Shown here: positions 13,505 to 52,574 of the stretch, piece by piece
Layout of the letters: every line of letters begins with the position of its first letter
Numbering within the stretch: position 1 is the first letter of the stretch
Source of the DNA: Terriglobus sp.
GTDB lineage: Bacteria > Acidobacteriota > Terriglobia > Terriglobales > Acidobacteriaceae
Assembly (NCBI GenBank): GCA_965200815.1
Contig: OZ241387.1
Location: forward strand, 17,112-81,111
DNA length: 64,000 nucleotides
Direction of reading: 5' to 3'
The notes under the pieces: model-generated
The model's input: only the letters and a program-made list of their open reading frames with translations
Database searches by the model: none
Told to the model about the DNA's origin: nothing
Program-made: the position numbers and the translations under genes

Positions 13505-15870
13505 GTTGCTGCTCCAATTGCAGAAACTTGGTCTGCACGGGGACGTTCGGCGGCGGGCGTGCCCGCGCCTGGCCCGCCGACCCCGGGCGGTTTCCACCCG
13601 AGCAGCCTCAGCGCGTTCATCGTCACCAGCACGGTTGCGCCCGTGTCGGCCAGGATCGCCGGCCACAGCCCGGTCAGACCCGCCAGTGTCGTCACCAGGA
13701 ACACCAGCTTGAGGCCGACCGCGACGGCCACGTTCTGCTTGACGTTGGACAGCGTCGCACGCGACAGCGCCACCAGCTCGGCCACGCCAGACACGCGCTC
13801 ACGGAGCAGCGCGGCGTCGGCCGTTTCCAGCGCCACGGCCGTCCCGCCTCCCATGGCAACGCCCACGCTGGCCGCGGCCAGGGCCGGTGCGTCGTTGATG
13901 CCATCGCCCACCATGACAACCGGGCCGCGCGCCTTGAGCGCCTCGATCTCCCGCAGCTTCTGGTCGGGCAGCAGCCCGGCGCGCACGTCCATGCCGAGCG
14001 CGCCCGCGATGGCGCGCCCGGTGCGCTCGTTGTCACCGGTCAGCATGACGGAAGCCACTCCCATGCGCTTCAGCGTGGCGACTGCATCACGTGCATCTCC
14101 GCGCGGCTCGTCCCGCAAGGCGAGCACGCCCAGGGCGCGGCCGTCCCGCAACACGACCACAGCTGTCTTGCCCTGCTCCTCCAGCGCGGTGATCCGGACC
14201 GCCAGGCTTGAAAGGTCGGCACCCTGTTCGGCCGCGTAGCCCGGGCTGCCAACCGCGATGCGCGCGCCCTCGACCAGGGCGACGGCCGCCTTGCCGGGTA
14301 CGGCGCTGGCTTCGGTGGCCGGCGGCGGCTGGATGCCCCGCGCCTCGGCTGCTTGCAGCACGGCGACGGCGAGGGGGTGGGCGCTGCCCGCCTCGACACC
14401 AGCCGCCGCGCGCAGCAGCGCCGCCTCGTCCACGCCATCAGCCGTCAGCACGTCCGTCACGAGCGGGCGCCCGGCGGTGAGCGTGCCGGTCTTGTCAAAG
14501 GCGACCGTCGCCGCCTTGCCGATCGTCTCCAGCGCAGCGCCGCCCTTGACCAGCAAGCCGCGGCGCGCTCCGGCCGAAAGTCCCGACGCCATGGCCGCCG
14601 GGACCGAAATGACGAGGGCGCAGGGGCAGGCAATCAGCAGCACGGCCAGGCCGCGGTAGACCCAGGTGCCCCAGTCGCCGCCGAACAGAAGGGGCGGCAC
14701 CAGGATGACAAGCGCCGACACAACCATCGCACCCGGCGTCCAGTAGGTGCTGAACTTCTCGATGAAACGCTGCGTCGGCGCGCGGCTGGCCGTCGCCTCC
14801 TCCACCATCTTTACAATGCGGCTGAGCGTGTTGTCGGCGGCCGTTGCGGTCACACGGATGCGGAGCAGCGCGGCGGTGTTGACCGACCCGGCGACGACCG
14901 CCTCGCCGACGCCGCGGCTCACCGGGACGCTCTCGCCCGTTACCGGGCTTTCGTCCACTGCGGACTGGCCCTCGACGATCATGCCGTCGCACGGGATGCG
15001 GTCGCCAGGCCGGGCCTGCACGATGTCGCCCAGGCTCAATCGGTCGGCTTGCAGTTCGACGGCCGCACCGTCGCGCTCAACCCGCGCCGTGCGGGGGATC
15101 AGGTCGGCTAGGGCCTTGATGCCGGACCGGGCTTGGCCTGCCGCGACGTTCTCAAGCATCTCGCCGACCGCGAACAGCAGCACGACGATGGCAGCCTCCT
15201 CGGCGGCGCCAATGAACACCGCGCCCACCGCAGCGGCCACCATCAGCGTCTCAATGGAGAACGGGGTGCCAGCGAGGGCCAACGCGAACGCGCGGCGGCC
15301 GAAGGGGAACACGGCGACAAGGGTTGCCGCGACGAAGATCCAGTATGCCTCCGCCGGGAACAGGAGCGAGGCGCCATAAGCCACGGCGACCAACGCGCCA
15401 AGCAGCCACACCAGCTTGGCTTTCCCTGTTCGCCACCAGGCCACGCCAGCGCGCTCCTCGGCTTCGTCCTCCTCGCTGTGCGCATGCATGTGCCCTGCGT
15501 GCGATCCGCCGTCGGAGTGGCTGTGCCCGGCGTGGTCGTGCTCAGCACGGTCATGGTCCGCGTGGTCGTGCCCGGCGTGGTCATGTCCCACATGGTCGCT
15601 GGTTGTCGGCGCCGCAGCCTTGCCCTGCCCTTGCCGGAGGGTCGCCTGGTAGCCCAGGGCGCCTACCGCGCGTGCCACGGCTGCGGGGTCGCTTCCCGGG
15701 GCGACGCGTGCCGTCAGCGTCTCTGCCATCAGGTTGACCTGAATGCCCCCGATGCCGGGCAGCCGCGACACGGCCTTCTCGACCTTGGCGACGCAGGACG
15801 CGCAGTCCATGCCCTGCACCTTCCAGGTCGTGACTTCCCCAACTGCCTCGTTCCTCGTGCCGTCCGGCAT
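13501..15870 (-). CDS. zntA: Heavy-metal translocating P1B-type ATPase (Zn/Cd/Pb type)
   Basis: HMA domain GMDCASCVAKVE; His-rich stretch HVGHDHAGHDHADHDRAEHDHAGHSHSDGGSHAGHMHAH; CPC in TM6 (IACPCALVISVP); DKTGTLT; GDGINDAPAL. I prefer ATG 15870 (GGAG 8 nt upstream) over 15936. Confidence 0.9.
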   Translation of the reverse strand: MPDGTRNEAVGEVTTWKVQGMDCASCVAKVEKAVSRLPGIGGIQVNLMAETLTARVAPGSDPAAVARAVGALGYQATLRQGQGKAAAPTTSDHVGHDHAGHDHADHDRAEHDHAGHSHSDGGSHAGHMHAHSEEDEAEERAGVAWWRTGKAKLVWLLGALVAVAYGASLLFPAEAYWIFVAATLVAVFPFGRRAFALALAGTPFSIETLMVAAAVGAVFIGAAEEAAIVVLLFAVGEMLENVAAGQARSGIKALADLIPRTARVERDGAAVELQADRLSLGDIVQARPGDRIPCDGMIVEGQSAVDESPVTGESVPVSRGVGEAVVAGSVNTAALLRIRVTATAADNTLSRIVKMVEEATASRAPTQRFIEKFSTYWTPGAMVVSALVILVPPLLFGGDWGTWVYRGLAVLLIACPCALVISVPAAMASGLSAGARRGLLVKGGAALETIGKAATVAFDKTGTLTAGRPLVTDVLTADGVDEAALLRAAAGVEAGSAHPLAVAVLQAAEARGIQPPPATEASAVPGKAAVALVEGARIAVGSPGYAAEQGADLSSLAVRITALEEQGKTAVVVLRDGRALGVLALRDEPRGDARDAVATLKRMGVASVMLTGDNERTGRAIAGALGMDVRAGLLPDQKLREIEALKARGPVVMVGDGINDAPALAAASVGVAMGGGTAVALETADAALLRERVSGVAELVALSRATLSNVKQNVAVAVGLKLVFLVTTLAGLTGLWPAILADTGATVLVTMNALRLLGWKPPGVGGPGAGTPAAERPRADQVSAIGAAT

Positions 15871-15898
15871 GCCACCGCTCCGAATATCTGCTGGACAC

Positions 15899-15929
15899 GG
15901 TCTACGGCCTGTAGCCACTAGAGGAGCAA
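15899..15929 (-). promoter_or_regulatory. MerR-type promoter: TTGCTC-N19-TAGACC with imperfect dyad CCTGTAG-CCA-CTAGAGG in the spacer
   Basis: On the minus strand, -35 is 15924-15929, the 19-nt spacer is 15905-15923 and -10 is 15899-15904. This is about 30 nt upstream of zntA ATG 15870 and divergent from the ZIP gene. A 19-20 bp spacer carrying a dyad is the hallmark of MerR-family promoters. Confidence 0.5.
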
Positions 15930-15954
15930 GCCCCAATTGACCCCGGTGTCGTCC

Positions 15955-16647
15955 ATGAGCAGCCTGCCAATCTGGTTGATCGCCTTTGTTCCGGTCCTAG
16001 CGACCCTTGGCGGTGCTTGGATCGCCTTGGTGCGACCTCCGGGTCGATCCACGGTGAGTGCGGTTCAGCATCTGGCAGCGGGCGTGGTTGTGGCGGCTGC
16101 GGCTGCCGAGGTGTTGCCGGGATTGAAGCATTCCGGGGCCGAGTGGGCCGTGGCCTTCGGCGGCGGTGCGGGCATTGTCCTGATGCTGGGCATCCGCTGG
16201 TTGGACGAACAATTGAAAGGGACGACGGGGATGCTGGTGACCGTCGGGCTGGACGTTCTTGTAGACGGCCTGGTGCTGGGCGCTGCAGCGACCGCCGGAG
16301 AGCGAGCGGGCCTTCTCCTCACCATCGCGCTGACACTTGAGGTGCTCTTCCTGGGCCTGTCGCTCGCTCCGGCGCTGGCTGAACGGATGGGCACGAAAGC
16401 AAAGGTGCTGGCCGTCATAGGCTCGCTCGTGCTGCTCCTGCCACTCGGCGCCGCAACGGGTGGGTTCATCACTGGCCTACCCAGGTTCTGGCAGGACTGC
16501 TTCCTCGCCTTCGCCCTCGTGGCCCTGCTCTACTTGGTCGTCGAGGAGTTGCTCGCCGAAGCGCACGAGGTTCCGGATACCCCCATAGCAACCGCCTTGT
16601 TCTTCGTCGGATTCCTGGGCCTGCTCGTCTTGGACGGCCTGGCCTGA
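15955..16647 (+). CDS. ZIP-family-like divalent metal permease
   Basis: About 230 aa and polytopic. HLAAGVVVAAAAAEVLPG, VGLDVLVDGLVLG and VVEELLAEAHE resemble ZupT/GufA-type ZIP signature helices, though they are His-poor. ATG 15955 (alternative TTG 15937). Confidence 0.6.
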   Translation: MSSLPIWLIAFVPVLATLGGAWIALVRPPGRSTVSAVQHLAAGVVVAAAAAEVLPGLKHSGAEWAVAFGGGAGIVLMLGIRWLDEQLKGTTGMLVTVGLDVLVDGLVLGAAATAGERAGLLLTIALTLEVLFLGLSLAPALAERMGTKAKVLAVIGSLVLLLPLGAATGGFITGLPRFWQDCFLAFALVALLYLVVEELLAEAHEVPDTPIATALFFVGFLGLLVLDGLA

Positions 16648-16713
16648 GATCCAGAGCTTGATCATGCCACCGCTATCCCGACATAGCTGTAACAGTTACA
16701 GGATTGGACCGAC

Positions 16714-17163
16714 ATGAGCGAGGCGGGTTACGCGATCGGAGACTTGGCCCGGCAGACGGGAACCACCGTCGAGACGATCCGATGGTACGAACGGGACGGC
16801 ACGATGCCAGCGCCCGCGCGCACCGAGGGCGGTCGGCGGCTCTACACCCAGGCTCACCTGGATCGCCTGGCGTTCATCCGGCATGCCCGGGAACTCGGTT
16901 TCCCGCTCGGGGATGTTCGCGCGCTCCTCCAATTGACCGACAAGCCAGAGAGTTCGTGCGCCGAGGCCGATATGATCGCACGGGGACATCTAGGCGCTGT
17001 ACGAAGCCGTATCGCGCGCCTGAAGGCACTAGAGGCGGAGCTGGAACGCATGCTGGATGCCTGCGAGCACGGAAAGGTGGCGGTGTGCAGGGTTATCCAG
17101 GTGCTCGCCAACCATTCGCATGAGCATTGCGTCGCACCTGGACATGGAGGAACGGGACTTTGA
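16714..17163 (+). CDS. MerR-family metal-responsive regulator (CadR/PbrR/ZntR-like)
   Basis: HTH IGDLARQTGTTVETIRWYERDG. The Cys triad spacing is typical of CadR/PbrR (C in SSCAEAD; CEHGKVAVC). A His-rich tail (HSHEHCVAPGHGG) follows. Confidence 0.85.
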   Translation: MSEAGYAIGDLARQTGTTVETIRWYERDGTMPAPARTEGGRRLYTQAHLDRLAFIRHARELGFPLGDVRALLQLTDKPESSCAEADMIARGHLGAVRSRIARLKALEAELERMLDACEHGKVAVCRVIQVLANHSHEHCVAPGHGGTGL

Positions 17164-22858: not shown

Positions 22859-24105
22859 TGACCCGATATATGATGCCCGCGCTCGCCATCATTGCCGGAG
22901 TGGGCCTGGCAGCGGCCGTTCCTTCCATCCCGCAGACGGCTCGGCACCTAGTCGGCCTGCCCGTCTCCGGTCCAGCCGAAGCTCGTCCTGCCGCCGCGGC
23001 GACAAGCCCGGATGCTCATGGCAAGGACGAGAAGGAGGGTGCCCATGCCGAAGAGGGCAAGATCGCCATGACGGACGAGCTGATCGGCGCTGCCGGGATC
23101 AAGGTATCCGCCGTCGGAGGCGGCGCGCTGGTCAGCCGCGTCGCCGCCTCCGGCGTGCTCGCCGCCAGCCAGGACCGGCTGGCCCGCGTGACCGCCCGAG
23201 TTGGCGGCACGGTCGTCGAAGTGCGGCGCAGCCTGGGTGAGCGGGTCGCCAAAGGTGATGTGCTCGCGGTGATCGAGAGCCGGGAGATCGCCGAGGCGAA
23301 GGGCGAGTTCCTGGCGGCCTCCCGTACGGCGTCCCTGGCCGAGAGCACGCTGGCGCGCGAAGGGCGGCTGTGGAAGCAGCGCATCTCCGCCGAACAGGAC
23401 TTCCTGCAGGCGCGCACCACGGCCGAGGAGGTCCGCATCCGCGTCGACCTGGCTCGGCAGAAGCTATCCGCCCTGGGCCTGACCGAGGTCGAGATCGTCG
23501 TGCTGCCGCGGCAGCCCGTGGCATCGCTCCGGCGGCTAGAGGTGCGGGCGCCGATCACCGGGCAAATCACGGCCCGCGCCGCGGTGCTGGGTGCCGCCGT
23601 GGGCGGTGACACGGAGCTGTTCAGCGTTGCCGATCTGTCGACGCTGTGGGTGGAGATGGCGATCCCACCACGGGACCTGCCATCGGCTCGTCAGGGCCAA
23701 GCCGTGGCGGTCTCCGGCGAAGGCGGCAGCAAGGGCGAGGGAAAGCTCGTCTTCCTGAGCCCGCTGCTCGACCCAGAGACGCGCTCCGCTCGCGGGGTCG
23801 CCGAATTGGCAAACCCCGACGGCGCGTGGCGGCCCGGCGCCTTCGTCACCGCACATCTGGCGACGGCCGAACAGAAGGTGGACCTGCTGGTCCCGCGCGA
23901 CGCCATCCAGGAGGTCGAGGGCGAGAAGGTCGTGTTCGTCCGCACCGCGGAGGGCTTCGAGAAGCGGGAGATCGCCATCGGCCGCGAGGATAGCGATCGC
24001 GTCGAGGTGGTCTTTGGACTGGAGCCCGGCACCGAGATCGCTGTGGGCAACGCCTTCGCGCTGCGGGCCGAGCTCGCGAAGTCCGAAGCGTCGCACAGCC
24101 ACTAG
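22855..24105 (+). CDS. czcB: RND periplasmic adaptor (membrane fusion protein), system 1
   Basis: N-terminal TM MMTRYMMPALAIIAGVGLAAA; lipoyl-like hairpin RVTARVGGTVVEVRRSLGERVAKGDVLAVIES; beta-barrel C-terminal part. Confidence 0.85.
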   Translation: MMTRYMMPALAIIAGVGLAAAVPSIPQTARHLVGLPVSGPAEARPAAAATSPDAHGKDEKEGAHAEEGKIAMTDELIGAAGIKVSAVGGGALVSRVAASGVLAASQDRLARVTARVGGTVVEVRRSLGERVAKGDVLAVIESREIAEAKGEFLAASRTASLAESTLAREGRLWKQRISAEQDFLQARTTAEEVRIRVDLARQKLSALGLTEVEIVVLPRQPVASLRRLEVRAPITGQITARAAVLGAAVGGDTELFSVADLSTLWVEMAIPPRDLPSARQGQAVAVSGEGGSKGEGKLVFLSPLLDPETRSARGVAELANPDGAWRPGAFVTAHLATAEQKVDLLVPRDAIQEVEGEKVVFVRTAEGFEKREIAIGREDSDRVEVVFGLEPGTEIAVGNAFALRAELAKSEASHSH

Positions 24106-24121
24106 CCCGGGAGGCGAGAAG

Positions 24122-27100
24122 ATGATCGGACGTATCCTCGATTTCGCAGTTCACCGGCGATGGACGGTGGTCATCATGGCCCTGCTCGCCGCCGCGGTCG
24201 GCGGCCACGCGCTTACCCGACTGCCAATCGACGCCGTGCCGGACATCACCAACAATCAGGCGCAGATCAGCACCGTCGCTCCGTCATTGTCGCCGTTCGA
24301 GATCGAAAAGCAGGTGACGCTGCCGATCGAGATGGCGCTGGCGGGCATCCCGGGCCTCGAATCCACCCGGTCCGTGTCGCGCAACGGCTTCAGCCAGGTC
24401 ACGGCGGTGTTCACCGAGGACACCGGGATCTACTTCGCCCGCCAGCAGGTGCTGGAGCGCCTGGCCGAAGCCCGCGAGACCATGCCGCCCGGCGCCGAAC
24501 CGCGGCTGGGGCCGGTGTCGACCGGCCTGGGCGAGGTGACGATGTGGACTGTGGGCTACGCGGACCGCAAGGCTGGGGATGTCGTTGCCGATGGCATCTC
24601 GGGCTGGCAGGCCGACGGCAGCTATCGGACGCCGGAAGGCGAGCGCCTGGCCGACGATGCGTCGCGAGCCGCCTATCTCCGCACCGTGCAGGACTGGGTG
24701 ATCCGGCCGCAACTGCGTACCTTGTCCGGTCTCGCCGGGGTGGATGCCATCGGCGGCTACGTGAAGCAGTTCGTGGTGCAGCCCGATCCGGCACGCCTCA
24801 TGGCGTTGGGTCTGACCTTCCGCGACCTGGGCGAAGCGCTGGAGCGCAACAACGCCAGCATGGGCGCGGGCTACGTCGAGCGCGGCGGCGAGGGCCTGGT
24901 GGTCCGCTCGGCCGGGCGCTTGTCGAAGGTGGCGGAAATGGAGCAGGTCGTCGTCGCCACGCGGAACGGCGTCCCGGTGCTGCTGCGCGACGTGGCGAAC
25001 GTCGAGACCGGCCAGGCGCCGCGCCTGGGCAGCGCCAGCGAGAACGGGCGCGAGGTCGTGGTCGGCACGGCGCTGATGCTTATCGGCGGCAACAGCCGCA
25101 CCGTGGCCGCGGCGGTTGAGGAGCGCCTGGCAGAGGTCAGGAAGACACTCCCGCCCGGCATCGAGGCCAAGTCGGTGCTGGATCGCGGCGTACTGGTCGA
25201 CAGCACCATCCGGACGGTGGCGAAGAACCTGGCCGAGGGCGCGCTGCTCGTCGTCGCCGTGCTGTTCCTGATGCTGGGGAACATCCGCGCCGCGCTGATC
25301 ACCGCGGCCGTCATTCCCGTCACCATGCTGCTGACTGCCTTCGGCATGGTCCGAGGCGGCATCAGCGCCAACCTGATGAGCCTGGGCGCGCTCGATTTCG
25401 GGCTCATCGTCGACGGCGCCGTCATCATCACCGAGAACAGTCTGCGCCACCTGGCGGAACGGCAGCACGAGTTCAAGCGCAAGCTGGACTTGGAGGAGCG
25501 GCTGCGGACAGTGGCGGAGAGTGCCCGCGAGATGATTCGTCCCTCGCTGTTCGGGCAAGGGATCATCATCCTGGTTTATGCGCCGCTGCTGACCTTCACC
25601 GGGGTGGAAGGCAAGATGTTCGTGCCCATGGCGCTGACGGTCATCATCGCCCTGGTTTTCGCCTTCGTGCTCTCGCTCACCCTGGTTCCGGCGCTGATAG
25701 CCATCGCCATCACCGGCCGCGTCAAGGAGGAGGAGGTCTGGCTGGTTCGCGTGCTGAAGCGTGGTTACGGCCCCACGCTGAATGCGTCGTTGCGGGCACC
25801 GGTCCCGGTGATCGCCGGCGGGGCCGTGCTGTTCGCCCTGTCGCTGATGCTGTTCAGCCGCTTGGGCCAGGAGTTCATCCCAACCCTGGACGAGGGCAAC
25901 CTCGCCATGCAGGCCTTACGGATCCCCAGCACCTCTCTACCCCAGTCGCAATCGATGCAGTCTGCCGTGGAGAAGCGCGTCTCGGCGTTCAAGGAGGTGG
26001 CGTTTATCTACTCCAAGACGGGCACGGCCGAGGTGGCGAGCGACCCGATGCCGCCCAGCGCCTCCGACACCTTCATCATCCTGCGTCCCCGGGCGGAGTG
26101 GCCCGATCCTCACCTAGACAAGGACGAGTTGGTGAAGCGCATCGAAGCGTCGGTCGCGCGGTTGCCGGGCAACGCGCTGGAGTTCTCGCAGCCGATCCAG
26201 ATGCGCTTCAACGAGTTGCTGGCGGGCGTGCGGGGCGACTTGGCGGTGAAGGTGTTCGGCGACGAGTACGAGCCGATGCTGAAGGCCACCAGCCAGATCG
26301 CGGCCATCCTCAACCGGGTGGACGGCGCCAGCGACGTGAAGGTCGAACAGGCGCAGGGACTGCCGTTCCTTGAGATCACCGTCGACCGGGCCGAGATCGC
26401 ACGGCGAGGTCTTAGCGTCACTGCCGTGCAGGACGTCGTCTCAGCGGCGATCGGCGGCAAGGAGTCGGGCGTGGTGTTCGAGGGCGATCGCCGCTTCGCC
26501 ATCGTGGTGCGCCTGGCGGAAAGCGTCCGCAGCGACATGGAGGCGTTGCGCAACCTGCCGGTGCCGCTTCCGGCCGTGGAGGGACGCCCGCTGGGCACCG
26601 TGCCCCTGCGGCAAGTGGCGGCTCTGAACGTTGTGGCCGGGCCAAACCAAATTAGCCGCGAGAACGGCAAGCGGCGGGTCGTGGTGCAGGCCAACGCGCG
26701 AGGTCGGGACATCGGTTCACTCGTGGCGGAGGCGCGCGCCAAGGTCGAGGCGGAGGTGCGGCTGCCACCGGGCTACTACATCACCTGGGGCGGGCAGTTC
26801 GAGAATCTGGCTAAAGCGCAGGCCCGGCTGTCGATCGTCGTGCCCGCTTGCTTCCTGTTGATCATCTTGCTGCTCTACGGGGCGCTTGGCTCCTTTCGAG
26901 ATGCGCTGCTGGTGTTCAGTGGTGTGCCGCTCGCCCTGTCCGGCGGGCTGCTGGCGCTGTGGTTGCGGGACATGTCGTTCTCGGTTTCGGCCGCGGTCGG
27001 CTTCATCGCGCTGTCCGGCGTCGCGGTGCTCAACGGGCTGGTGATGGCCACCTCGATCCGCGGCTTGTTGGAGGCCGGACGGCTTTCGCTGCGCGATGCC

Positions 27101-27370
27101 GTGTTCCAGGGCGCCATGACCCGGCTGCGGCCCGTTGCGATGACGGCCCTGGTGGCCTCGCTGGGCTTCGTGCCGATGGCGTTGGCGACCGGGCCGGGTG
27201 CCGAAGTGCAGAAGCCCCTTGCCACGGTCGTCATCGGCGGACTGATCAGCGCCACGATCCTGACGCTTCTGGTGCTGCCCGCCCTCTACATGCGGTTCAA
27301 TCGGGCCACCGTAACAAATCCTTCGACCGCAGACCAGGTGCCGAAGGCCCAACCTACGGCGGCCGAGTGA
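24122..27370 (+). CDS. czcA: Heavy-metal-efflux RND permease (CzcA family), system 1
   Basis: 1082 aa. N-terminus MIGRILDFAVHRRW...PIDAVPDITNNQAQI, plus the HME-type TM4 motif DFGLIVDGAVIITEN. Confidence 0.9.
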   Translation: MIGRILDFAVHRRWTVVIMALLAAAVGGHALTRLPIDAVPDITNNQAQISTVAPSLSPFEIEKQVTLPIEMALAGIPGLESTRSVSRNGFSQVTAVFTEDTGIYFARQQVLERLAEARETMPPGAEPRLGPVSTGLGEVTMWTVGYADRKAGDVVADGISGWQADGSYRTPEGERLADDASRAAYLRTVQDWVIRPQLRTLSGLAGVDAIGGYVKQFVVQPDPARLMALGLTFRDLGEALERNNASMGAGYVERGGEGLVVRSAGRLSKVAEMEQVVVATRNGVPVLLRDVANVETGQAPRLGSASENGREVVVGTALMLIGGNSRTVAAAVEERLAEVRKTLPPGIEAKSVLDRGVLVDSTIRTVAKNLAEGALLVVAVLFLMLGNIRAALITAAVIPVTMLLTAFGMVRGGISANLMSLGALDFGLIVDGAVIITENSLRHLAERQHEFKRKLDLEERLRTVAESAREMIRPSLFGQGIIILVYAPLLTFTGVEGKMFVPMALTVIIALVFAFVLSLTLVPALIAIAITGRVKEEEVWLVRVLKRGYGPTLNASLRAPVPVIAGGAVLFALSLMLFSRLGQEFIPTLDEGNLAMQALRIPSTSLPQSQSMQSAVEKRVSAFKEVAFIYSKTGTAEVASDPMPPSASDTFIILRPRAEWPDPHLDKDELVKRIEASVARLPGNALEFSQPIQMRFNELLAGVRGDLAVKVFGDEYEPMLKATSQIAAILNRVDGASDVKVEQAQGLPFLEITVDRAEIARRGLSVTAVQDVVSAAIGGKESGVVFEGDRRFAIVVRLAESVRSDMEALRNLPVPLPAVEGRPLGTVPLRQVAALNVVAGPNQISRENGKRRVVVQANARGRDIGSLVAEARAKVEAEVRLPPGYYITWGGQFENLAKAQARLSIVVPACFLLIILLLYGALGSFRDALLVFSGVPLALSGGLLALWLRDMSFSVSAAVGFIALSGVAVLNGLVMATSIRGLLEAGRLSLRDAVFQGAMTRLRPVAMTALVASLGFVPMALATGPGAEVQKPLATVVIGGLISATILTLLVLPALYMRFNRATVTNPSTADQVPKAQPTAAE

Positions 27371-27405: not shown

Positions 27406-27783
27406 ATGACGAAGCTCTATTCCACGCTCGCCGTCCTGTTGATGCTCGCGCCGGCCGCTTTCGCCCAGGGCCATGCGCACAGCGACAAGAAGGGACCGCA
27501 TGGCGGCCTGCTGCAAGATGTCATCGGCGTGGAGGCCGAACTCGTCACAGCTGAGCGGACCTTGACACTCCACGTCTATGACGAGGCCGGAAAGCCGGTG
27601 TCTGTGGCGGGCTATTCCGGATCGGCACTCGTCGGAACGGGGGCTGCACGCCAAGTGGTCCAGCTCACACCGGGCTCTGATAATACGATGACCGGGGCGG
27701 CGCCCGCGGCGATTGCGCGGGGAACCTCAGTAACCGTCCAGCTTAAAGGATCGAACGGCAAGAGCGGGCAGGCCAAGTTCTAG
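27406..27783 (+). CDS. Small periplasmic accessory protein with His-rich mature N-terminus (family member 1)
   Basis: GAGGAGA then ATG 27406. Signal peptide MTKLYSTLAVLLMLAPAAFA, then QGHAHSDKKGPHGG. The pattern is shared with 52575..52958 (HGG..V...E..L..YV.DE.GKP...V.L.P). Confidence 0.6.
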   Translation: MTKLYSTLAVLLMLAPAAFAQGHAHSDKKGPHGGLLQDVIGVEAELVTAERTLTLHVYDEAGKPVSVAGYSGSALVGTGAARQVVQLTPGSDNTMTGAAPAAIARGTSVTVQLKGSNGKSGQAKF

Positions 27784-28035: not shown

Positions 28036-28353
28036 TCACAAAAAGTCCGGCTGCTGCAGCTGCGGCTTTCTTTCCGGCCGGACCGGCAGAGCCTCGATCT
28101 CCGCGCCGAATGCCTGCTCGGCAATGCGGAGATCATAGGCCGCTTGCAGATTGAGCCAGAATTCAGCCGAGGTCCGAAACCAGTGGCCGAGGCGCAAAGC
28201 GGTGTCGCCGGTGACCGCTCGCTTGCCATTGATGATCTGCGAAACCCGGTTCGCCGGCACGTTGATCTGCCGGGCTAACTCGGTCGGTGAAACGCCGAGT
28301 TCTTCCAGCTCGTCGGACAGAATTTCACCGGGGTGGATCGCCGGTCTGGTCAT
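28036..28353 (-). CDS. higA: HigA-family antitoxin (XRE HTH)
   Basis: MTRPAIHPGEILSDELEELGVSPTELARQINVPANRVSQIINGKRAVTGDTALRLGHWF. GGAGGA lies 7 nt upstream of ATG 28353. Confidence 0.8.
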   Translation of the reverse strand: MTRPAIHPGEILSDELEELGVSPTELARQINVPANRVSQIINGKRAVTGDTALRLGHWFRTSAEFWLNLQAAYDLRIAEQAFGAEIEALPVRPERKPQLQQPDFL

Positions 28354-28367
28354 TGGTGCTTCCTCCA

Positions 28368-28652
28368 TCAGTGATAATCGACAATCTCGACATTCGACGG
28401 GCCGGCCGCGTCCTGCGGCCATTCAAAGCAAACCCGCCATTGGCCGTTGATGCGGATGCTGTATTGCCCGGCCCGGTCGCCCCTCAGGGCTTCCAGCCGA
28501 TTGCTCGGCAGGCCGCGCAAGTCGCTCAGGCTGGTCGCCGCGCCCAGAATTTCGAGCCGCTTATGTGCCTGCCGATCGAAACCGGAAAAGGCCGCCATGC
28601 GCTCTCCTGCGGCAAACTGCGCCGTTCGTTTATCCTTAAATCCTATAATCAC
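28368..28652 (-). CDS. higB: HigB-like RelE/ParE-fold toxin (plasmid maintenance system killer)
   Basis: 94 aa: FKDKRTAQF...NRLEALRGDRAGQYSIRINGQWRVCFEW. The toxin-first gene order is typical of hig modules. Confidence 0.8.
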   Translation of the reverse strand: MIIGFKDKRTAQFAAGERMAAFSGFDRQAHKRLEILGAATSLSDLRGLPSNRLEALRGDRAGQYSIRINGQWRVCFEWPQDAAGPSNVEIVDYH

Positions 28653-28791
28653 ATGCCAAGATAACAGGCTTGACGTTTGACGTCACGCGTATTTTCTATC
28701 TGCGCCGCCTGGATTGTAGAAGCCTCGAGCTTTGCAAACGTTTTCAGATGTTTGTTTAATATGCTAATCTGATTCTCTGGAGGAGCCCGAT

Positions 28792-28872
28792 ATGAAGTTC
28801 ATCATTCTGACTCTCGTTAGCCTGATGGTGATGGCCGCTCCGGCTTTCGCTTGCTGCCCCGGTTGCCCATAG
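28792..28872 (+). CDS. 26-codon signal-peptide ORF ending in CCPGCP (candidate secreted or lipidated Cys-rich micropeptide)
   Basis: GGAGGAG lies 6 nt before ATG 28792. Translation is MKFIILTLVSLMVMAAPAFACCPGCP, with TAG at 28870-28872 and a perfect hairpin terminator 25 nt later. It is below the ORF-track cutoff. Confidence 0.45.
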   Translation: MKFIILTLVSLMVMAAPAFACCPGCP

Positions 28873-28896
28873 CGACAAGGTGCTAGGCTGGTAGAA

Positions 28897-28924
28897 ACAA
28901 AGCCGTCCTTTGGGACGGCTTTGT
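28897..28924. terminator. Bidirectional hairpin terminator between the micro-ORF and ccdA
   Basis: acaaagccgtcc(28897-28908) tttg ggacggctttgt(28913-24): a perfect 12-bp stem followed by a T-rich run (tgtgg). It lies between convergent genes. Confidence 0.6.
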
Positions 28925-28971
28925 TGTGGCGAGCCCTAAAGGTTGAGCATCATCTTACCGATCTCCCCTAT

Positions 28972-29709
28972 TCATCCGATGGTCCCAAGGGCAGGAAAAA
29001 ACTGAAGCATCAAAATGGCGAAGTCGGTGAGATGGCCGGTAATCATGGCTACACCCATCACCACCATGACCCCGCCCGCTACGAGTTGAAGCATCACGCC
29101 AAAGCGCCGCAACGTGCGGAACGGGCCGCGCAAAAAGGCGTCAGCGAAAACAGCCACCAGCAGAAAGGGCACGCCTAGTCCTGCTGCATAGGTGGCCAGC
29201 AACAGGATACCGATATGGCTAATTTCTCCGGTTGCGGTTATCGCCAGAATAGCGCCCAACACCGGCCCGATACAGGGAGTCCAGCCAAACGCAAAGGCCA
29301 GCCCCAGCACATAGGCGGATAACGGCGTGCCGCCTCTGAACTTTGGCATGAAGCGCAGATCGCGCTGCAATGGCATTAGCCGCAGCATACCCGCAGTCAT
29401 AAGACCAAACAGGGTGACCACAACCCCGCCGACAATACCTGCCTCGTAGCGGTAGCGGAGCAGGGTATGGCTAAGCGCCGAGGCGCCCGCGCCCATGGCC
29501 ACGAACACAGTGGCAAAGCCCAGCACGAAGCATAGGCCGAGACCGAGCGTTGTAAGACGCGAAGAGGGGGTAGCCACGCTGCCTGCCGTAGTGCCCGCAA
29601 CATAAGAAAGGTAGCCGGGCACAAGCGGAAGCACGCATGGCGAGAGAAAAGAGACCATGCCAGCCGTGAAGGCGGTCAGCAGACCCGACATTTGCAGCAA
29701 GGAGGTCAT
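28972..29709 (-). CDS. ccdA: CcdA/DsbD-family thiol-disulfide electron transporter
   Basis: FLSPCVLPLVPGYLSYV and FGWTPCIGPVLGAIL (the two conserved TM cysteines); six TM segments. Confidence 0.85.
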   Translation of the reverse strand: MTSLLQMSGLLTAFTAGMVSFLSPCVLPLVPGYLSYVAGTTAGSVATPSSRLTTLGLGLCFVLGFATVFVAMGAGASALSHTLLRYRYEAGIVGGVVVTLFGLMTAGMLRLMPLQRDLRFMPKFRGGTPLSAYVLGLAFAFGWTPCIGPVLGAILAITATGEISHIGILLLATYAAGLGVPFLLVAVFADAFLRGPFRTLRRFGVMLQLVAGGVMVVMGVAMITGHLTDFAILMLQFFPALGTIG

Positions 29710-29715
29710 CGAGCC

Positions 29716-30213
29716 TTAGACCGGCGCCGTGGCACGCGTTTCATCGCGCCTTAAAGTCAGCAGCAGCAGGAGCATCACACCCAGGAAAATCGCTGAATCA
29801 GCGATATTGAAGGCAGGCCAGTGATAGCCGCCTGCGTGAAAGTCGAGGAAGTCCGTTACCGCACCATGACGCAGCCGGTCCACCACATTGCCGAGCGCGC
29901 CGCCCGTGATCAAGCCGACCGCTACCGCATTGAAGGGCCTGAAGTCATGGCGGGTCCAGAGGATAAAGCCTGCAATCACTGCAAGCGCGAACGCGGACAG
30001 TATCCATGGCGTTGCGGGATGGTCGGCCGAGAGCATGCCGAAGCTCACACCACGATTTCGACCCAGCACCACGTTGAAGAACGGGGTAACGGTCAGGACG
30101 CGCAGCGGATCGAGCAATGTCGCCAGAGCCCAAGCTTTGGTGACCTGGTCGAGCGCAAACGCGAGGATCGCGGGGGCGGCAATCCAGCCCCAGGGGATGC
30201 GGCGCTCAGCCAT
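29716..30213 (-). CDS. lspA: Lipoprotein signal peptidase II
   Basis: DQVTKAW, FFNVVLGRNRGVSFG, GGALGNVVDRLRHGAVTDFLDF and WPAFNIADS. ATG 30213 overlaps the cadA stop by 8 nt. Confidence 0.85.
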   Translation of the reverse strand: MAERRIPWGWIAAPAILAFALDQVTKAWALATLLDPLRVLTVTPFFNVVLGRNRGVSFGMLSADHPATPWILSAFALAVIAGFILWTRHDFRPFNAVAVGLITGGALGNVVDRLRHGAVTDFLDFHAGGYHWPAFNIADSAIFLGVMLLLLLTLRRDETRATAPV

Positions 30214-32395
30214 GGGCGTCTGCCTCCCGGAAGCGGTAGCGCAGCAGCCGCAGAGCATTGAGGGTCACCAGTACCGTGGCACCCGTATCGGCAAGGATGG
30301 CAGGCCACAGACCAGTGATACCGGCTACGGTTGTCACCAGGAAAACCGCCTTGAGGCCAAGCGCGATAGTGACATTCTGGTGGATGTTGGACAGCGTTGC
30401 GCGAGACAGCGCGACCAGGGCGGCCACGTCGACGACGCGGCTGTTAAGCAGTGCGGCGTCGGCCGTTTCGAGTGCCACATCGGTGCCTCCACCCATGGCA
30501 ATGCCTACGGACGCTGCGGCAAGCGCGGGCGCATCATTGATGCCGTCTCCGACCATGGCAACGGGGGCTTCTGTCTTGAGCGCACCAATTTCGCGCAGCT
30601 TGTCTTCGGGCAGCAGGCCCGCCTTCACCTTAAGGCCAAGCTGTCCCGCGATAGCCTCGCCGGTGCGGATATTGTCCCCGGTAAGCATGACCGACTGGAT
30701 GCCCAGGGCATGAAGCCGGCGAATACCCTCGGCAGCATCGGGCCGCAGCTCGTCGCGGACCGCGATCAGGCCGGTGGGCGTGCCATCCACAGAGACGACC
30801 ACCACGGTCTTGCCTTCGCCCTCCCAGGCGGCAACTGCCTGCTTGGCATCGGCGGGCAGGGATGTGAGGCTCGCTGCATAGCTAGGCGAGCCTACGCTGA
30901 CGCATTTTCCAGTAATGACCGCCTCGACCGCCTTGCCGGGGATCGCCCGTGCGTCCTTGGTTGGGCGCAGCGGAATACCGTCAGCCTCGGCGCGTTCGAG
31001 GATGGCGCGGCCGAGCGGATGGCTCGATCCGTTCTCGACCGCAGCGGCGAGGCCCAACATGGTACGCTCCTGACCTGACAAGGCCAAAAGATCGGTCACG
31101 CGTGGTCGCCCTTCGGTGAGCGTGCCGGTCTTGTCGAACGCCACGGCACGGATGCGGCCAATAGTCTCAAGTGCGCCGCCGCCCTTGATCAGCAGGCCGC
31201 GCCTGGTTCCGACTGCAAGCCCGGAAGCAATGGCAGCAGGGGTTGAAAGCACGAGCGCGCACGGGCATCCGACCAACAGCAAGGCCAAGCCGCGATAGAT
31301 CCAGGTGGCCCATTCTGCGCCAAGCAGCAGCGGCGGCACCACGGCGACCAGGGTGGCGACCAGCACCGCAATCGGCGTGTAGATGGCGGAAAAGCGTTCG
31401 ATGAAGCGCGCGGTCGGTGCCTTGGCTTCCTGGGCCTCCTCGACCAGGCGGATAATGCGGGCAATAGTATTATCGGCGGCGGGCGTGGTCACCCGCACCT
31501 GAAGCGCACCCGAGGCGTTGATGCTGCCTGCGAAGACGGCGGCACCCTCAGTCTTAGCCACGGGCACGGATTCTCCGGTCACGGGGCTTTCATCAATCTC
31601 GGAGGTTCCCTCCGTGATGGTGCCATCGGCCGAAACCCGGTCGCCTGGGCGGATCAACACCAAGTCGCCAACCACGAGGCTGGCCGCCTGCACCTCGCGC
31701 GCGGTTCCCTGCTCGATGCGTAACGCGGTCCTCGGCACGAGCGCGCCAAGTGCCTCAATGCCGGCGCGAGCGCGGCCCGCCGCGACGCTCTCAAGCAGCT
31801 CGCCCACGGTAAACAGGAACACCACGACCGCAGCCTCGGAGGTGGCGCCGATGAGGATGGCGCCCACAGTCGCGATCGACATGAGCATTTCGATGGAGAA
31901 AGGCGAGCCTGCGCGGGCGGCGGCGATAGCCTTACGCCCGAAAAACACGAGGCCGACGAGCGCGGCGGGCAGATAAGGCCAATGGTCGAGGGCAGGGACC
32001 GCAAAGGAAACCACGAACCCGACCACGATCAACATGCCTATGAGCGCAGCCAGGCGAGCCTTGGTGCCTGTCCACCACGGCTTGCGCGCGCGAACAGGTG
32101 CTGCCTCTGCGACTTCAGTGCCTGCTTCGCCCGTGACCACGCGCGGTGCCTCGACGGGGGCCACGCCGTAGCCAAGCTTACGGATGGTCTCTTCGACGGT
32201 CGCGCGGGGCGTTGCCGTTTCGTCCAGCCGGAAGGCCAGGACCTGAGCATGGTAGTTGACGCGGATGTCCTCGGCACCGCTGACGCGACCGACTGCCGTT
32301 TCGATCTTCGTAGCGCAGGAGGGGCAGTCCATGCCTTCGACATGGTAGCGCAAGTTGGCCTGCGGCCGGGTCGGGGCGGTGTCGGTATCTGTCAT
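30206..32395 (-). CDS. cadA: Heavy-metal translocating P1B-type ATPase (Cd/Zn/Pb type)
   Basis: HMA domain GMDCPSCATKIE; CPC (LVGCPCALVLSTP); DKTGTLT; GDGINDAPAL. Confidence 0.9.
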   Translation of the reverse strand: MTDTDTAPTRPQANLRYHVEGMDCPSCATKIETAVGRVSGAEDIRVNYHAQVLAFRLDETATPRATVEETIRKLGYGVAPVEAPRVVTGEAGTEVAEAAPVRARKPWWTGTKARLAALIGMLIVVGFVVSFAVPALDHWPYLPAALVGLVFFGRKAIAAARAGSPFSIEMLMSIATVGAILIGATSEAAVVVFLFTVGELLESVAAGRARAGIEALGALVPRTALRIEQGTAREVQAASLVVGDLVLIRPGDRVSADGTITEGTSEIDESPVTGESVPVAKTEGAAVFAGSINASGALQVRVTTPAADNTIARIIRLVEEAQEAKAPTARFIERFSAIYTPIAVLVATLVAVVPPLLLGAEWATWIYRGLALLLVGCPCALVLSTPAAIASGLAVGTRRGLLIKGGGALETIGRIRAVAFDKTGTLTEGRPRVTDLLALSGQERTMLGLAAAVENGSSHPLGRAILERAEADGIPLRPTKDARAIPGKAVEAVITGKCVSVGSPSYAASLTSLPADAKQAVAAWEGEGKTVVVVSVDGTPTGLIAVRDELRPDAAEGIRRLHALGIQSVMLTGDNIRTGEAIAGQLGLKVKAGLLPEDKLREIGALKTEAPVAMVGDGINDAPALAAASVGIAMGGGTDVALETADAALLNSRVVDVAALVALSRATLSNIHQNVTIALGLKAVFLVTTVAGITGLWPAILADTGATVLVTLNALRLLRYRFREADAHG

Positions 32396-32450
32396 AGCAT
32401 GCCTTCTTTCCGCAGCACCTGCCGCCGGTCGTCATGGATAGAAGGTTCTT

Positions 32451-32481
32451 GATATAAACCCTGTAGTTGCTACAGGGTCAA
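32451..32481 (-). promoter_or_regulatory. MerR-type promoter/operator: TTGACC-N19-TATATC with perfect dyad ACCCTGTAG-TTG-CTACAGGGT
   Basis: On the minus strand, -35 is 32476-32481, the 19-nt spacer is 32457-32475 and -10 is 32451-32456. The dyad spans 32458-32478. It lies between divergent cadA and cadR; the cadR ATG is at 32484, implying a near-leaderless cadR transcript. Confidence 0.65.
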
Positions 32482-32483
32482 GG

Positions 32484-32936
32484 ATGACATCAGAAACACC
32501 TTTGAGCATTGGTGCCCTCGCAAAAGCGACCAACACCAAGGTCGAGACGATACGATGGTATGAGCGGGTCGGGCTGCTGCCGGTGCCGCCCCGTACTGCC
32601 GGAAACTATCGAACCTATGGCACGGCCGATCTTGGGCGACTGAGCTTCATCCGGCGCGCGCGGGATCTCGGATTTTCCCTCGATCAGACCCGCGCATTGC
32701 TCGACCTTGCCCTGGACCGCGAGCATTCTTGTGAAGGCGTCGATGTCATTGCTCGAGAACATCTCGGCGAGGTGGATCGCAAAATTGCTGATCTCCAGGC
32801 GTTGCGGCGCGAATTGGACGCGCTGATCGGGCAATGTCGCCATGGTAAGATTGCGGACTGCCGCATCATCGATGCGCTTGCTCCGTCCTCATTGCTCTCG
32901 GAACCTGTCACCAGCCCTAAAATGCAAAAACCCTGA
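32484..32936 (+). CDS. cadR: MerR-family Cd/Pb/Zn-responsive regulator
   Basis: IGALAKATNTKVETIRWYERVGLLP; Cys triad (HSCEGVD; CRHGKIADC). Confidence 0.85.
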   Translation: MTSETPLSIGALAKATNTKVETIRWYERVGLLPVPPRTAGNYRTYGTADLGRLSFIRRARDLGFSLDQTRALLDLALDREHSCEGVDVIAREHLGEVDRKIADLQALRRELDALIGQCRHGKIADCRIIDALAPSSLLSEPVTSPKMQKP

Positions 32937-41119: not shown

Positions 41120-42534
41120 TGCGCGAGCTGCTTGCGGCCGGCGTTGCCGCCCTCATTGCCACCGGCGTTGCCGGTGGAATTGCCAAGGCTGAGGACGGCC
41201 GGCAACCGCTCTACTATCAAGACCCGGATGGCAATCCATTCTATTCGGCCGGTCCCAGAAAGGCGGCAAGCGGGCACGATTACGTGCCGGTCTTCGATGA
41301 CGCCGCACCGACCCCGGGAGTTGCTGCGAACGACACGCCGGCGGCACCAGCAGCAGGGACAACCGTACAGGCAGCGTCCTCCTCTGGCCAAAACCGCATC
41401 CTGTTCTACCGCAACCCCATGGGCCTGCCCGACACCTCACCCGCGCCCAAGAAGGATTCGATGGGCATGGACTACATCCCCGTCCGTGAGAGCGAGGCGG
41501 TGGATGCAGGCGCCGGCTTGGTCACCATCGCGCCCGGCCGGATGCAGGTCCTCGGCGTCCGGACCGCTCCCGTCGAAAGTCGCGCGGCGCTGACGCGGAC
41601 GATCCGGGCAACGGGGACGGTGCAGTTCGACGAGCGCCGGATGGCCGTCGTGAGCACGCGGGTGGGCGGCTGGGTCGAGCGCCTGGAAGTCGGGGCGACC
41701 GGAGATGCTGTCAGGCGCGGCCAAGTGATGGCTGACCTCTACTCGCCGGACCTGGTTGCAGCAGAGGAAGAGTTCCTAGTGGCGTCGCGCATGGGCGGCG
41801 CGATGGCGGCAGCCTCAGTTCAGCGCCTGCGCGCCCTGGGCGTGCCTGATGGCGAGGTCACCAGGCTGCGGCGCACCGGCAAGACGGCGCAACGCATCCC
41901 GGTCCTGGCGCCGGCGGATGGTGTAGTCACCGAGAAGATGGTGGTGCAGGGCACCCGCGTCGGACCGGACCAGCCGCTGTATCGGACGGCAACCCTGTCG
42001 CCCGTATGGGTAATCGCCGAAGTTCAGGAAGGGGAGCTTGGCGGCGTGCGGCCGGGCCAGCAGGCCAAGGCCGGCTTCGTCGCCTTCCCGGGCCGCGGCT
42101 TCACCGGCACGGTGGACTTCATCTACCCGAGCCTGACGGCCGAGACGCGCACCGCCCGTGTGCGCGTCATCATGCCCAACGCGGACGGGGCGCTACGGGC
42201 AGGAATGTTCGCCAGCGTGGAGATCGAAGCACCCGCTGCCAACGGCGCGGGGCCGATGCTTGCGGTGCCATCTTCGGCCGTCCTGGACAGCGGTACGCGG
42301 CAGGCCGTGCTGGTGGAGCGTGGCGAGGGACGGTTCGAGCCACGCCAGGTGCGCGTCGGCGCGCAGGGCGATGGCACCGCCCAGATTCTCGACGGTCTCA
42401 AGCCCGGCGAGCGGGTGGTGGTCGGCGCGAACTTTCTGATCGACGCCGAGAGCAACCTTCGGGCCGCGCTGCAAGCCTTCACTGTGCCCGGCGGGCCGGG
42501 GCAACTTAACGGACAGAGAGGCAAGACGCCATGA
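41116..42534 (+). CDS. cusB: RND periplasmic adaptor, CusB-like
   Basis: N-terminal segments YYQDPDGNPFYS and FYRNPMGLPDTSPAPKKDSMGMDYIPV are typical of Cu/Ag adaptors. An MFP core follows. Confidence 0.85.
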   Translation: MMRELLAAGVAALIATGVAGGIAKAEDGRQPLYYQDPDGNPFYSAGPRKAASGHDYVPVFDDAAPTPGVAANDTPAAPAAGTTVQAASSSGQNRILFYRNPMGLPDTSPAPKKDSMGMDYIPVRESEAVDAGAGLVTIAPGRMQVLGVRTAPVESRAALTRTIRATGTVQFDERRMAVVSTRVGGWVERLEVGATGDAVRRGQVMADLYSPDLVAAEEEFLVASRMGGAMAAASVQRLRALGVPDGEVTRLRRTGKTAQRIPVLAPADGVVTEKMVVQGTRVGPDQPLYRTATLSPVWVIAEVQEGELGGVRPGQQAKAGFVAFPGRGFTGTVDFIYPSLTAETRTARVRVIMPNADGALRAGMFASVEIEAPAANGAGPMLAVPSSAVLDSGTRQAVLVERGEGRFEPRQVRVGAQGDGTAQILDGLKPGERVVVGANFLIDAESNLRAALQAFTVPGGPGQLNGQRGKTP

Positions 42535-52551: not shown

Positions 52552-52574
52552 CCCGTTAACCAAGGAGAACCACG

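Follow-up and report, generated by a model that had tools for sequence, protein, structure and literature searches.

Bufferins (BufA1 and BufA2) are Sec-exported, Cys-based ribosomal peptides that buffer periplasmic copper, and belong to the metallophores among the ribosomally synthesized and post-translationally modified peptides that are processed by MNIO enzymes (PMC11626156). Their cores are folded mini-proteins of 60–70 residues, in which a neighboring pair of an MNIO (DUF692) and a DUF2063 protein turns the cysteines into thiooxazoles (PMC11626156). Phytochelatins and metallothioneins are also short Cys-rich peptides, and their thiolates sequester cadmium, zinc, copper, or arsenic. Here, a 26-codon open reading frame (ORF), referred to as the micro-ORF, has been analyzed in a 64,000-nucleotide stretch of contig OZ241387.1 assigned to Terriglobus sp. 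(positions 17,112–81,111; assembly GCA_965200815.1), which is referred to as the window. The micro-ORF belongs to a previously undescribed, alphaproteobacterial gene family that is real and under protein-level constraint. The peptide that it encodes consists of MKFIILTLVSLMVMAAPAFA followed by the C-terminal hexapeptide CCPGCP.

Bufferins are the nearest concept to the micro-ORF peptide; however, its core has six residues and no sequence similarity to them. No MNIO, DUF2063, or DoxX gene was found among the neighbors scanned with Pfam or pre-annotated (window and loci L058, L131, L133–L140, and L153–L157), where some flanking ORFs lack any Pfam match. Searches of Pfam and NCBIfam with the window peptide returned no family and nothing above noise, with no Pfam match even at E ≤ 10; the peptide is thus not a member of DUF2282 or of the BUF_6/12Cys family. 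Phytochelatins are made enzymatically from glutathione, whereas the micro-ORF peptide is gene-encoded and carries an export signal. Metallothioneins of the SmtA/BmtA type are cytosolic and have at least 50 residues with a cluster of about nine or more Cys and His; the micro-ORF peptide, by contrast, has 26 residues, three Cys, an exported-type sequence, and no metallothionein match in Pfam or NCBIfam.

In mer systems, the vicinal or CxxC cysteines of MerP, the CC pairs of MerT and MerF, and the C-terminal CC tail of MerA capture a thiophilic metal and hand it on. The micro-ORF peptide would share this hand-off logic only: it has no homology to these proteins, no mer genes occur at any locus of the family, and its neighbors are exporters, whereas those in mer systems are importers or reductases. 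Bacterial lipoproteins and the cadA-lspA and pbrABCD arrangements have in common with the micro-ORF locus a signal sequence followed by Cys and a second lspA with a Zn/Cd/Pb ATPase, but the micro-ORF peptide does not satisfy lipobox rules, and cadA-lspA linkage exists without the micro-ORF. The Phr pentapeptides of Bacillus are the last five to six residues of signal-peptide-bearing precursors. Their genes are similarly tiny and encode a hydrophobic N-terminus; however, Phr peptides are paired with rap receptors in Firmicutes and require further proteolysis. The small membrane proteins KdpF, AcrZ, CydX, and YohP likewise have a hydrophobic N-terminus, but keep their helix and lack a Cys tail. 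Neither the Phr peptides nor these proteins are linked to metal islands. Because of its differences from bufferins, phytochelatins, metallothioneins, and mer Cys pairs, the micro-ORF family belongs to no described family; functionally, it would be an extremely reduced form of the exported Cys-rich metal-binding peptide. A literature search for CCPGCP across 8 million papers returned only an irrelevant acronym, in agreement with the sequence-only reading, a first interpretation of the window, which knew of no such system: no record of the family exists in Pfam, NCBIfam, or the literature.

A micro-ORF family under protein-level constraint

The features of the micro-ORF and its expression signals in the window are the following.

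28733–28763, + strand: putative promoter TTGCAA-19 nt-TAATAT (TTGCAA 28733–28738; TAATAT 28758–28763), read directly
28779–28785, + strand: Shine-Dalgarno sequence GGAGGAG, separated from the ATG by 6 nt, read directly
28792–28872, + strand: micro-ORF, 26 codons followed by TAG at 28870–28872, translation MKFIILTLVSLMVMAAPAFACCPGCP
28792–28851, + strand: signal-peptide-like codons 1–20, with n-region MK, a 14-residue uncharged h-region, and c-region P-A-F-A (rule-based)
28852–28869, + strand: predicted mature tail, codons 21–26, CCPGCP with three Cys
28896–28925, no strand assigned: 13-bp GC-rich hairpin with a TTTGTT tail, read as the intrinsic terminator of the micro-ORF

The sequence-only reading had identified the ORF from ATG 28792 to the TAG with its CCPGCP tail, the GGAGGAG sequence with 6-nt spacing, and the TTGCAA-N19-TAATAT element in an AT-rich stretch, and all of these have been confirmed. 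The putative promoter is located in a local dip of the GC profile, 0.46 compared with about 0.62; it was not reported by a consensus scan, which accepted only spacers of 16–18 nt. The terminator had been described as a 12-bp hairpin starting 25 nt after the TAG, which was essentially right, although the perfect stem measures 13 bp (28896–28908 and 28913–28925, with a 4-nt loop) and begins 23 nt past the stop codon. The 63-nt segment containing the hairpin (28873–28935) has a folding energy of –33.7 kcal/mol (z = –5.8 relative to shuffled sequences). The hairpin is also placed to terminate the transcript of the convergent ccdA gene.

Thirteen further distinct peptide sequences were found at about 12 independent loci, giving 14 peptides including that of the window; one is from an isolate, Enterovirga aerilata, and the others all come from metagenomes. 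A degenerate DNA pattern for A-CCPGCP-stop matched at least 119 loci in 185,579 species genomes; among the matches listed, 118 were junk frames in GC-rich DNA and one was true. The true match (L058) is from E. aerilata (Methylobacteriaceae), and its counterpart peptide MKLVAMTLTTLMVMAAPALACCPGCP is accompanied by a Shine-Dalgarno sequence and a terminator. The pattern ATGAAR-N(39–66)-A-CCPGCP-stop, with any spacing and frame allowed, identified 11 loci in JGI metagenomes; nine of them contain intact ORFs of the same design, eight of which have exactly 26 codons. In searches that did not use a pattern, phmmer against 1.84 billion representative proteins recovered P0241 and P0242, and a profile search against 5.8 billion proteins recovered P0243, P0244, and P0245, all five entries having been annotated with false start codons too far upstream. 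A collection of 15 billion proteins lacks ten of the family peptides, and the two that it contains are both mis-started “hypothetical proteins”. No matches were found in 72,556 plasmids, searched by blastn with the 401-nt locus and by tblastn with the peptide, or in viral contigs. Five near-identical metagenome contigs also carry the ORF of the window, but are uninformative about constraint.

The family has the consensus MK-(14 uncharged residues)-[AVG]-P-[AV]-[LFM]-A-CCPGCP-stop, from which L135 departs with 30 codons and an h-region extended by a four-residue insertion. The CCPGCP tail is identical in 13 of the 14 peptides. In P0245 (L156, 1806–1889, and L157), which is a close relative of the Enterovirga peptide and is identical in two samples, it is replaced by ATVSCCP. 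The P0244 entry reads CCP and then passes through the terminator in another frame, which is likely due to a frameshift or an assembly error.

In codons that were not fixed by the search patterns, the mean pairwise differences are 0.42, 0.24, and 0.56 at codon positions 1, 2, and 3, respectively, and in codons 16–19 they are 0.10, 0.10, and 0.59. The invariant Pro and Ala are written with two and four different codons, respectively, the codons of the Cys, Pro, and Gly residues of the tail vary synonymously, and the stop codon varies too. Nucleotide identity is 0.59 within the ORF, but is at the random level of 0.26–0.30 in the flanks, which do not align. Between the two loci, blastn aligns only 28789–28868 of the window to the Enterovirga locus, with 79% identity. 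Each member of the family is a monocistronic unit with its own Shine-Dalgarno sequence: a GGAG-type sequence is positioned roughly 5–9 nt 5' of the ATG in every member for which upstream DNA is available, and a clear GC hairpin followed by a T-run terminates the window copy and 8 of the 11 other loci with downstream DNA read. A generic small-ORF filter (18–45 codons, K or R near the N-terminus, a hydrophobic core, at least two Cys in the last ten residues, and a Shine-Dalgarno sequence) applied to 1.17 Mb of fetched DNA, including the 119 random ACCPGCP-stop loci, returned only family members. The substitution pattern, the conserved architecture, and the result of the generic filter together establish that the family is real and that selection acts on it at the protein level.

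The ORF is very short, and the Rfam scan assigned no family to the region, with only weak sub-threshold matches overlapping the hairpin. It is nevertheless extremely improbable, and effectively already refuted, that the ORF arose by chance or is an accidentally open part of a conserved non-coding RNA or terminator: the frame, length, start, stop, and Shine-Dalgarno sequence are kept across about 12 lineages, substitutions are biased to third positions, the flanks cannot be aligned, and the hairpin matches no Rfam family. It is very likely that the micro-ORF is a genuine gene and is translated.

Predicted export signal and probable route of processing

Substrates of signal peptidase I have a positively charged n-region and a hydrophobic h-region of 7–15 residues; a helix breaker occupies –4 to –6, the residues at –3 and –1 are small and uncharged, and Pro is excluded from +1. 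The sequence-only reading of the window peptide as a signal sequence with n-, h-, and c-regions ending in AFA was supported, since all 14 peptides fit the –3/–1/helix-breaker rule in a rule-based check. All of them begin with MK(K/R) and continue with 13–17 uncharged residues; P occupies –4, A occupies –1, and either C or A follows at +1. At –3, 13 peptides have A and the remaining one (L155) has V. The h-region is variable, 13–17 residues long, and tolerates the insertion in L135, whereas the P-A-x-A sequence of the c-region is strongly conserved. The P-A-M-A and P-A-L-A ends are presumably similar to the C-terminus of the PelB leader, which is in wide use. This conservation profile is that of a predicted cleaved signal peptide. 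The only charge of the window peptide is on Lys2, and a positive-inside topology would place the tail outside. The tail is thus probably exposed in the cell envelope.

The alternative suggestion of a lipobox-like AFAC was not supported. The lipobox rules [LVI][ASTVI][GAS]C and that of the PROSITE PS51257 type both end at the +1 Cys, and neither is matched by any of the 13 canonical peptides, in which –2 is L, F, or M, owing to their A or V at –3 and invariant P at –4. The PS51257-type rule is matched by the ATVSCCP variant alone, through its lipobox-like sequence T-V-S-C. The conserved P-A-x-A, the agreement of all 14 peptides with the signal peptidase I rule, and the failure of all 13 canonical peptides with the lipobox rules favor cleavage by signal peptidase I.

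If the peptide were a lipoprotein, Lgt would attach diacylglycerol to Cys21 and LspA would cut in front of it, leaving an anchored lipo-Cys-CPGCP, the remaining CxxC of which could bind metal at the surface of the membrane. In 13 of the 14 peptides, the residue immediately after the predicted cleavage site is Cys, A at –1 and L, F, or M at –2 are tolerated by some lipoboxes, the tail variant has its T-V-S-C, and the window contains an additional lspA at a distance of 850 nt. However, this lspA is linked to cadA and not to the micro-ORF: orthologous cadA-lspA-ccdA loci lack the ORF, and no lspA homologue is present at any other family locus scanned. The cadA-lspA linkage is known independently of such a peptide from Tn6018 (PMC6863613), and a second lspA beside a Zn/Cd/Pb P-type ATPase is also found in the pbr operon as pbrC, encoding PbrC. 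An extra lspA beside such an ATPase is therefore a known arrangement that needs no micro-ORF to explain it. Atypical lipoboxes exist, so that failure of the rules only lowers the probability of a lipoprotein. Nevertheless, lipidation and processing by the adjacent LspA, as previously proposed, has become an unlikely route for the canonical peptides, none of which satisfies a lipobox rule.

It is similarly improbable that the peptide remains uncleaved as a single-pass micro-membrane protein with the N-terminus inside and the C-terminus outside, in which a periplasmic Cys tail would capture and hand off metal or serve as an accessory subunit of an efflux pump or sensor, analogous to KdpF-, AcrZ-, and CydX-type subunits or to the vicinal cysteines of MerT, MerF, and the MerA C-terminus. 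Such a topology would be compatible with the MK followed by 18 consecutive uncharged residues, the single positive charge being N-terminal, with the recurrence of the ORF beside modules of a CusA/CzcA-type resistance-nodulation-division (RND) pump and a 125-residue protein in three lineages, and with the vicinal Cys-Cys that is kept even by the tail variant. However, the h-region varies freely and accepts a four-residue insertion, whereas the most conserved part not forced by the searches is the P-A-x-A of the c-region, a profile that marks a cleaved signal peptide and not a helix packing on a partner. Furthermore, the stretch of 14 hydrophobic residues that precedes the Pro is short for a membrane-spanning segment, and no single partner gene is conserved.

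Genomic neighborhoods of the micro-ORF

The genes flanking the micro-ORF in the window are the following.

24014–27370, + strand: CusA/CzcA-family RND pump, upstream context beyond higBA
27406–27783, + strand: 125-residue signal-peptide protein, after the RND pump
28036–28353, – strand: higA (105 residues), toxin–antitoxin pair with higB
28368–28598, – strand: higB (76 residues), toxin–antitoxin pair with higA, between the RND module and the micro-ORF
28972–29709, – strand: DsbD_TM/CcdA-like gene (ccdA), convergent with the micro-ORF
29716–30258, – strand: lspA, in the convergent operon
30206–32395, – strand: ZntA/CadA-type ATPase (cadA), in the convergent operon
32484–32936, + strand: MerR-family regulator, read divergently from cadA-lspA-ccdA

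The convergent arrangement of the micro-ORF and the cadA, lspA, and ccdA operon was correctly recognized in the sequence-only reading. The window as a whole is a multi-metal resistance island, derived from an Acetobacteraceae-like organism, that contains a second CadA, a second MerR, two further RND pumps, ACR3, and ArsR. The second CadA-type ATPase, which is 54% identical and is accompanied by a separate MerR-family regulator, and the two further RND systems are located at about 13600–17127, 42447–45614, and 47834–52943.

The proposed functional unit of the micro-ORF with LspA and CcdA is not conserved. The best matches of the window CcdA are from Roseomonas, Roseicella, and Roseococcus, and seven diverged cadA-lspA-ccdA loci (Roseomonas nepalensis, Roseicella aerolata, and metagenomes; CcdA 78–85% identical) lack the micro-ORF. 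The DNA homology of these relatives to the window reaches precisely as far as 28972, where the ccdA gene has its stop codon. Conversely, tblastn found no homologues of CcdA, LspA, or CadA in the sequence available for the nine other micro-ORF loci scanned. A conserved synteny of ccdA with the micro-ORF is therefore rejected, and the functional unit with LspA and CcdA is not supported. The micro-ORF is best read as an accessory gene of metal-resistance islands and not as a dedicated partner of LspA or CcdA.

In the relatives, the operons continue past ccdA with genes for Lactamase_B, a short cation diffusion facilitator (CDF), SCO1/SenC, and PCuAC or DsbA-like proteins (L005, L008, and L009), which are likely periplasmic clients of CcdA. 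The SCO1, PCuAC, and DsbA-like proteins from these loci have no tblastn match in the window, consistent with the earlier remark that CcdA has no thioredoxin-like partner there. The window lost or never had these genes, and the micro-ORF and higBA occupy the place after ccdA.

The soft-metal context that had been proposed for the micro-ORF is supported by its recurrence in metal-resistance neighborhoods. In the window, these genes encode CadA, LspA, CcdA, a CzcA-type RND pump with the 125-residue protein, ArsR, and ACR3. The Enterovirga locus contains a MerR-family gene and a CDF, and in L133 a CDF is located immediately downstream of the micro-ORF. The order in L131 is HupE, a CsoR-like gene, an OEP-MFP-CzcA-type RND system, a 123-residue homologue of the 125-residue protein (47% identical), and the micro-ORF; in L155, the micro-ORF lies between a CzcA-type RND operon, which includes a 124-residue homologue, and an ars operon. 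L138 has CsoR-family and EamA genes, and in L136 and L153 a phytochelatin-synthase-like gene is divergent from the micro-ORF. Metal or thiol genes are present in each of the six lineages for which the flanks extend to at least 3 kb.

No conserved modifying enzyme, receptor, or regulator was found beside the micro-ORF among the scanned or annotated neighbors, and the unannotated flanking ORFs (L136, 204 residues; L138, two of 202 residues; L131, 118 residues) show no homology across loci. An unmodified peptide is therefore the simplest product. Synteny with the short CDF of L058 and L133 was also rejected, as 11 loci with CDF orthologues (74–88% identical; Methylobacterium, Mesorhizobium, and Bradyrhizobium) lack the ORF.

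MerR-regulated metal promoters have a spacer of 19–20 bp that holds a strong palindromic operator (PMC1526738, PMC3431237). The 19-nt spacer of the putative micro-ORF promoter contains only weak dyads, CAAAC-N10-GTTTG, noticed by eye, and TGCAAACGT/ACGTTTTCA at 89%. The CadR-type operator ACCCTGTAG-N3-CTACAGGGT was not found in this spacer. Membership of the micro-ORF in a CadR regulon through such an operator is therefore not supported, the operator of cadR/cadA being absent from its promoter. Across the family, the best shared upstream 8-mer, with one mismatch allowed, occurs in 5 of the 12 upstream regions, which is no better than in shuffled sequences.

Several regulatory elements are present elsewhere in these neighborhoods. 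A perfect CadR/PbrR-type operator ACCCTGTAG-N3-CTACAGGGT is located at 32450–32470 of the window, inside the divergent cadR/cadA promoter, and the second merR-family gene is preceded by another dyad, CTGTAAC-A-GTTACAG, near 16680–16700. An 18-nt imperfect inverted repeat around TGACGTCA (28659–28697) is probably the higBA operator. Repressors of the CsoR/RcnR family occur at two micro-ORF loci (L138, 1970–3335, – strand; L131, 3382–3639), and that of L138 is the first gene of an operon, shared with an EamA-family transporter, just 5' of the micro-ORF.

A signal-peptide protein of about 125 residues follows CusA/CzcA-type RND genes twice in the window (27406–27783, + strand, and a paralogue at about 52635–52943), in L131 (9857–10228), and in L155 (1302–1676), with 30–47% identity among the copies. 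It matches no family in Pfam or NCBIfam, and looks like an uncharacterized periplasmic accessory protein of heavy-metal-efflux RND (HME-RND) pumps.

Proposed function of the CCPGCP tail

The three thiols of the tail, which include a vicinal pair and a CxxC spacing, constitute a classic soft-metal site. Taken with the genomic neighborhoods, this suggests that the peptide buffers or shuttles Cd, Zn, Pb, Cu(I), or As(III) in the envelope through its thiols. The micro-ORF is a stand-alone monocistronic gene with its own Shine-Dalgarno sequence and terminator, and would encode a pre-peptide of 26 residues. The first 20 residues would function as a Sec-type signal sequence (n-region MK, h-region of about 14 uncharged residues, and c-region P-A-x-A). 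Signal peptidase I would cut after A-x-A and leave CCPGCP on the periplasmic side of the inner membrane, where the vicinal Cys pair and the third Cys could bind Cd, Zn, Pb, Cu(I), As(III), or Hg. The hexapeptide may then act as a sacrificial buffer or shuttle beside HME-RND pumps, CDF, and P1B-ATPase. As a whole, a stand-alone Sec-exported pre-peptide from which signal peptidase I releases a CCPGCP that binds thiophilic metals in the envelope is the best explanation of the locus, although we hold it tentatively. Of its parts, a role related to metals is somewhat favored, and the release of a free hexapeptide is possible, but somewhat less likely than not. The most specific form remains doubtful: an unmodified CCPGCP, Sec-exported from an 81-nt gene, could be a periplasmic or secreted thiol metallophore, a “ribosomal phytochelatin”, which captures Cd, Zn, Pb, Cu(I), and As(III) in the envelope and feeds or relieves efflux by HME-RND, CDF, and P1B-ATPase.

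Several points weigh against this explanation. A-CCPGCP-stop was a fixed element of both DNA scans, as was M-K in the metagenome scan, and part of the invariance of these residues therefore results from the design of the searches; those without a pattern are skewed as well, towards the Cys tail with its high score. The short contigs L134, L135 (Hsp20), L139, L140, L154, and L156 contain no metal gene. Orthologues of the CDF and of cadA-lspA-ccdA mostly occur without the ORF, and thus do not point to an obligate partner. Porins could allow a free 0.6-kDa peptide to leak out, and DsbA in the periplasm would oxidize its thiols. Because a 26-residue chain is complete before it leaves the ribosome, targeting must be post-translational. 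Finally, the ATVSCCP tail of one close relative means that the exact hexapeptide is not strictly required; this variant suggests that the core requirement is the vicinal CC-P.

A role unrelated to metals, as a type I toxin, a signaling peptide, or a redox-active thiol peptide, would reduce the metal-related neighbors to co-residents on mobile accessory islands. The size and hydrophobicity of the peptide are like those of type I toxins, the window copy adjoins higBA, no common operator was found, and the neighbors on the short contigs are mixed, including genes unrelated to metals (Hsp20, SIR2, LysE, and methyltransferase) and an FGE-sulfatase domain. However, the invariant feature of the family is the Cys-rich tail and not the hydrophobic part, there is no conserved antisense partner or receptor gene, and Rfam contains no antitoxin family matching 28400–29100 of the window. 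With metal or thiol genes in every lineage that has sufficient flanking sequence, such a role is quite improbable.

If the peptide is both produced and exported, it would provide an extremely compact layer of metal homeostasis in the envelope, a thiol buffer that is encoded by a gene and does not depend on biosynthetic enzymes. This role has so far been given to enzyme-made thiols, such as glutathione and phytochelatins, or to the larger CusF, CopK, MerP, and bufferins. In the most specific form of the explanation, the peptide would be the smallest known gene-encoded metal chelator, and its gene would represent a class of resistance determinants unseen by current gene callers. Metal-resistance islands carry conserved genes below the gene-caller limit of roughly 30 codons. 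The unit of about 150 nt is self-contained and therefore easy to test, and it could serve as a minimal metal-binding or biosensing module.

Sequences related to the tail occur in neighboring genes. The short CDFs beside the micro-ORF in L133 (684–1388) and L058 (2419–3168) have Cys-rich N-termini, MSCCSDSCCPP... and ..DDCCGSTASCCTPP.., respectively, which are reminiscent of the CCP motif in the peptide. In L154, the micro-ORF is convergent with a gene (711–998, – strand) that encodes an FGE-sulfatase domain. CxPxR motifs are the targets of FGE enzymes, and CCPGC occurs in the peptide; this neighbor is probably a coincidence, because it occurs only once. In L155, a called 92-residue ORF that heads the RND operon (6610–6888, – strand) contains CACCPGC, and may be a spurious frame in GC-rich DNA.

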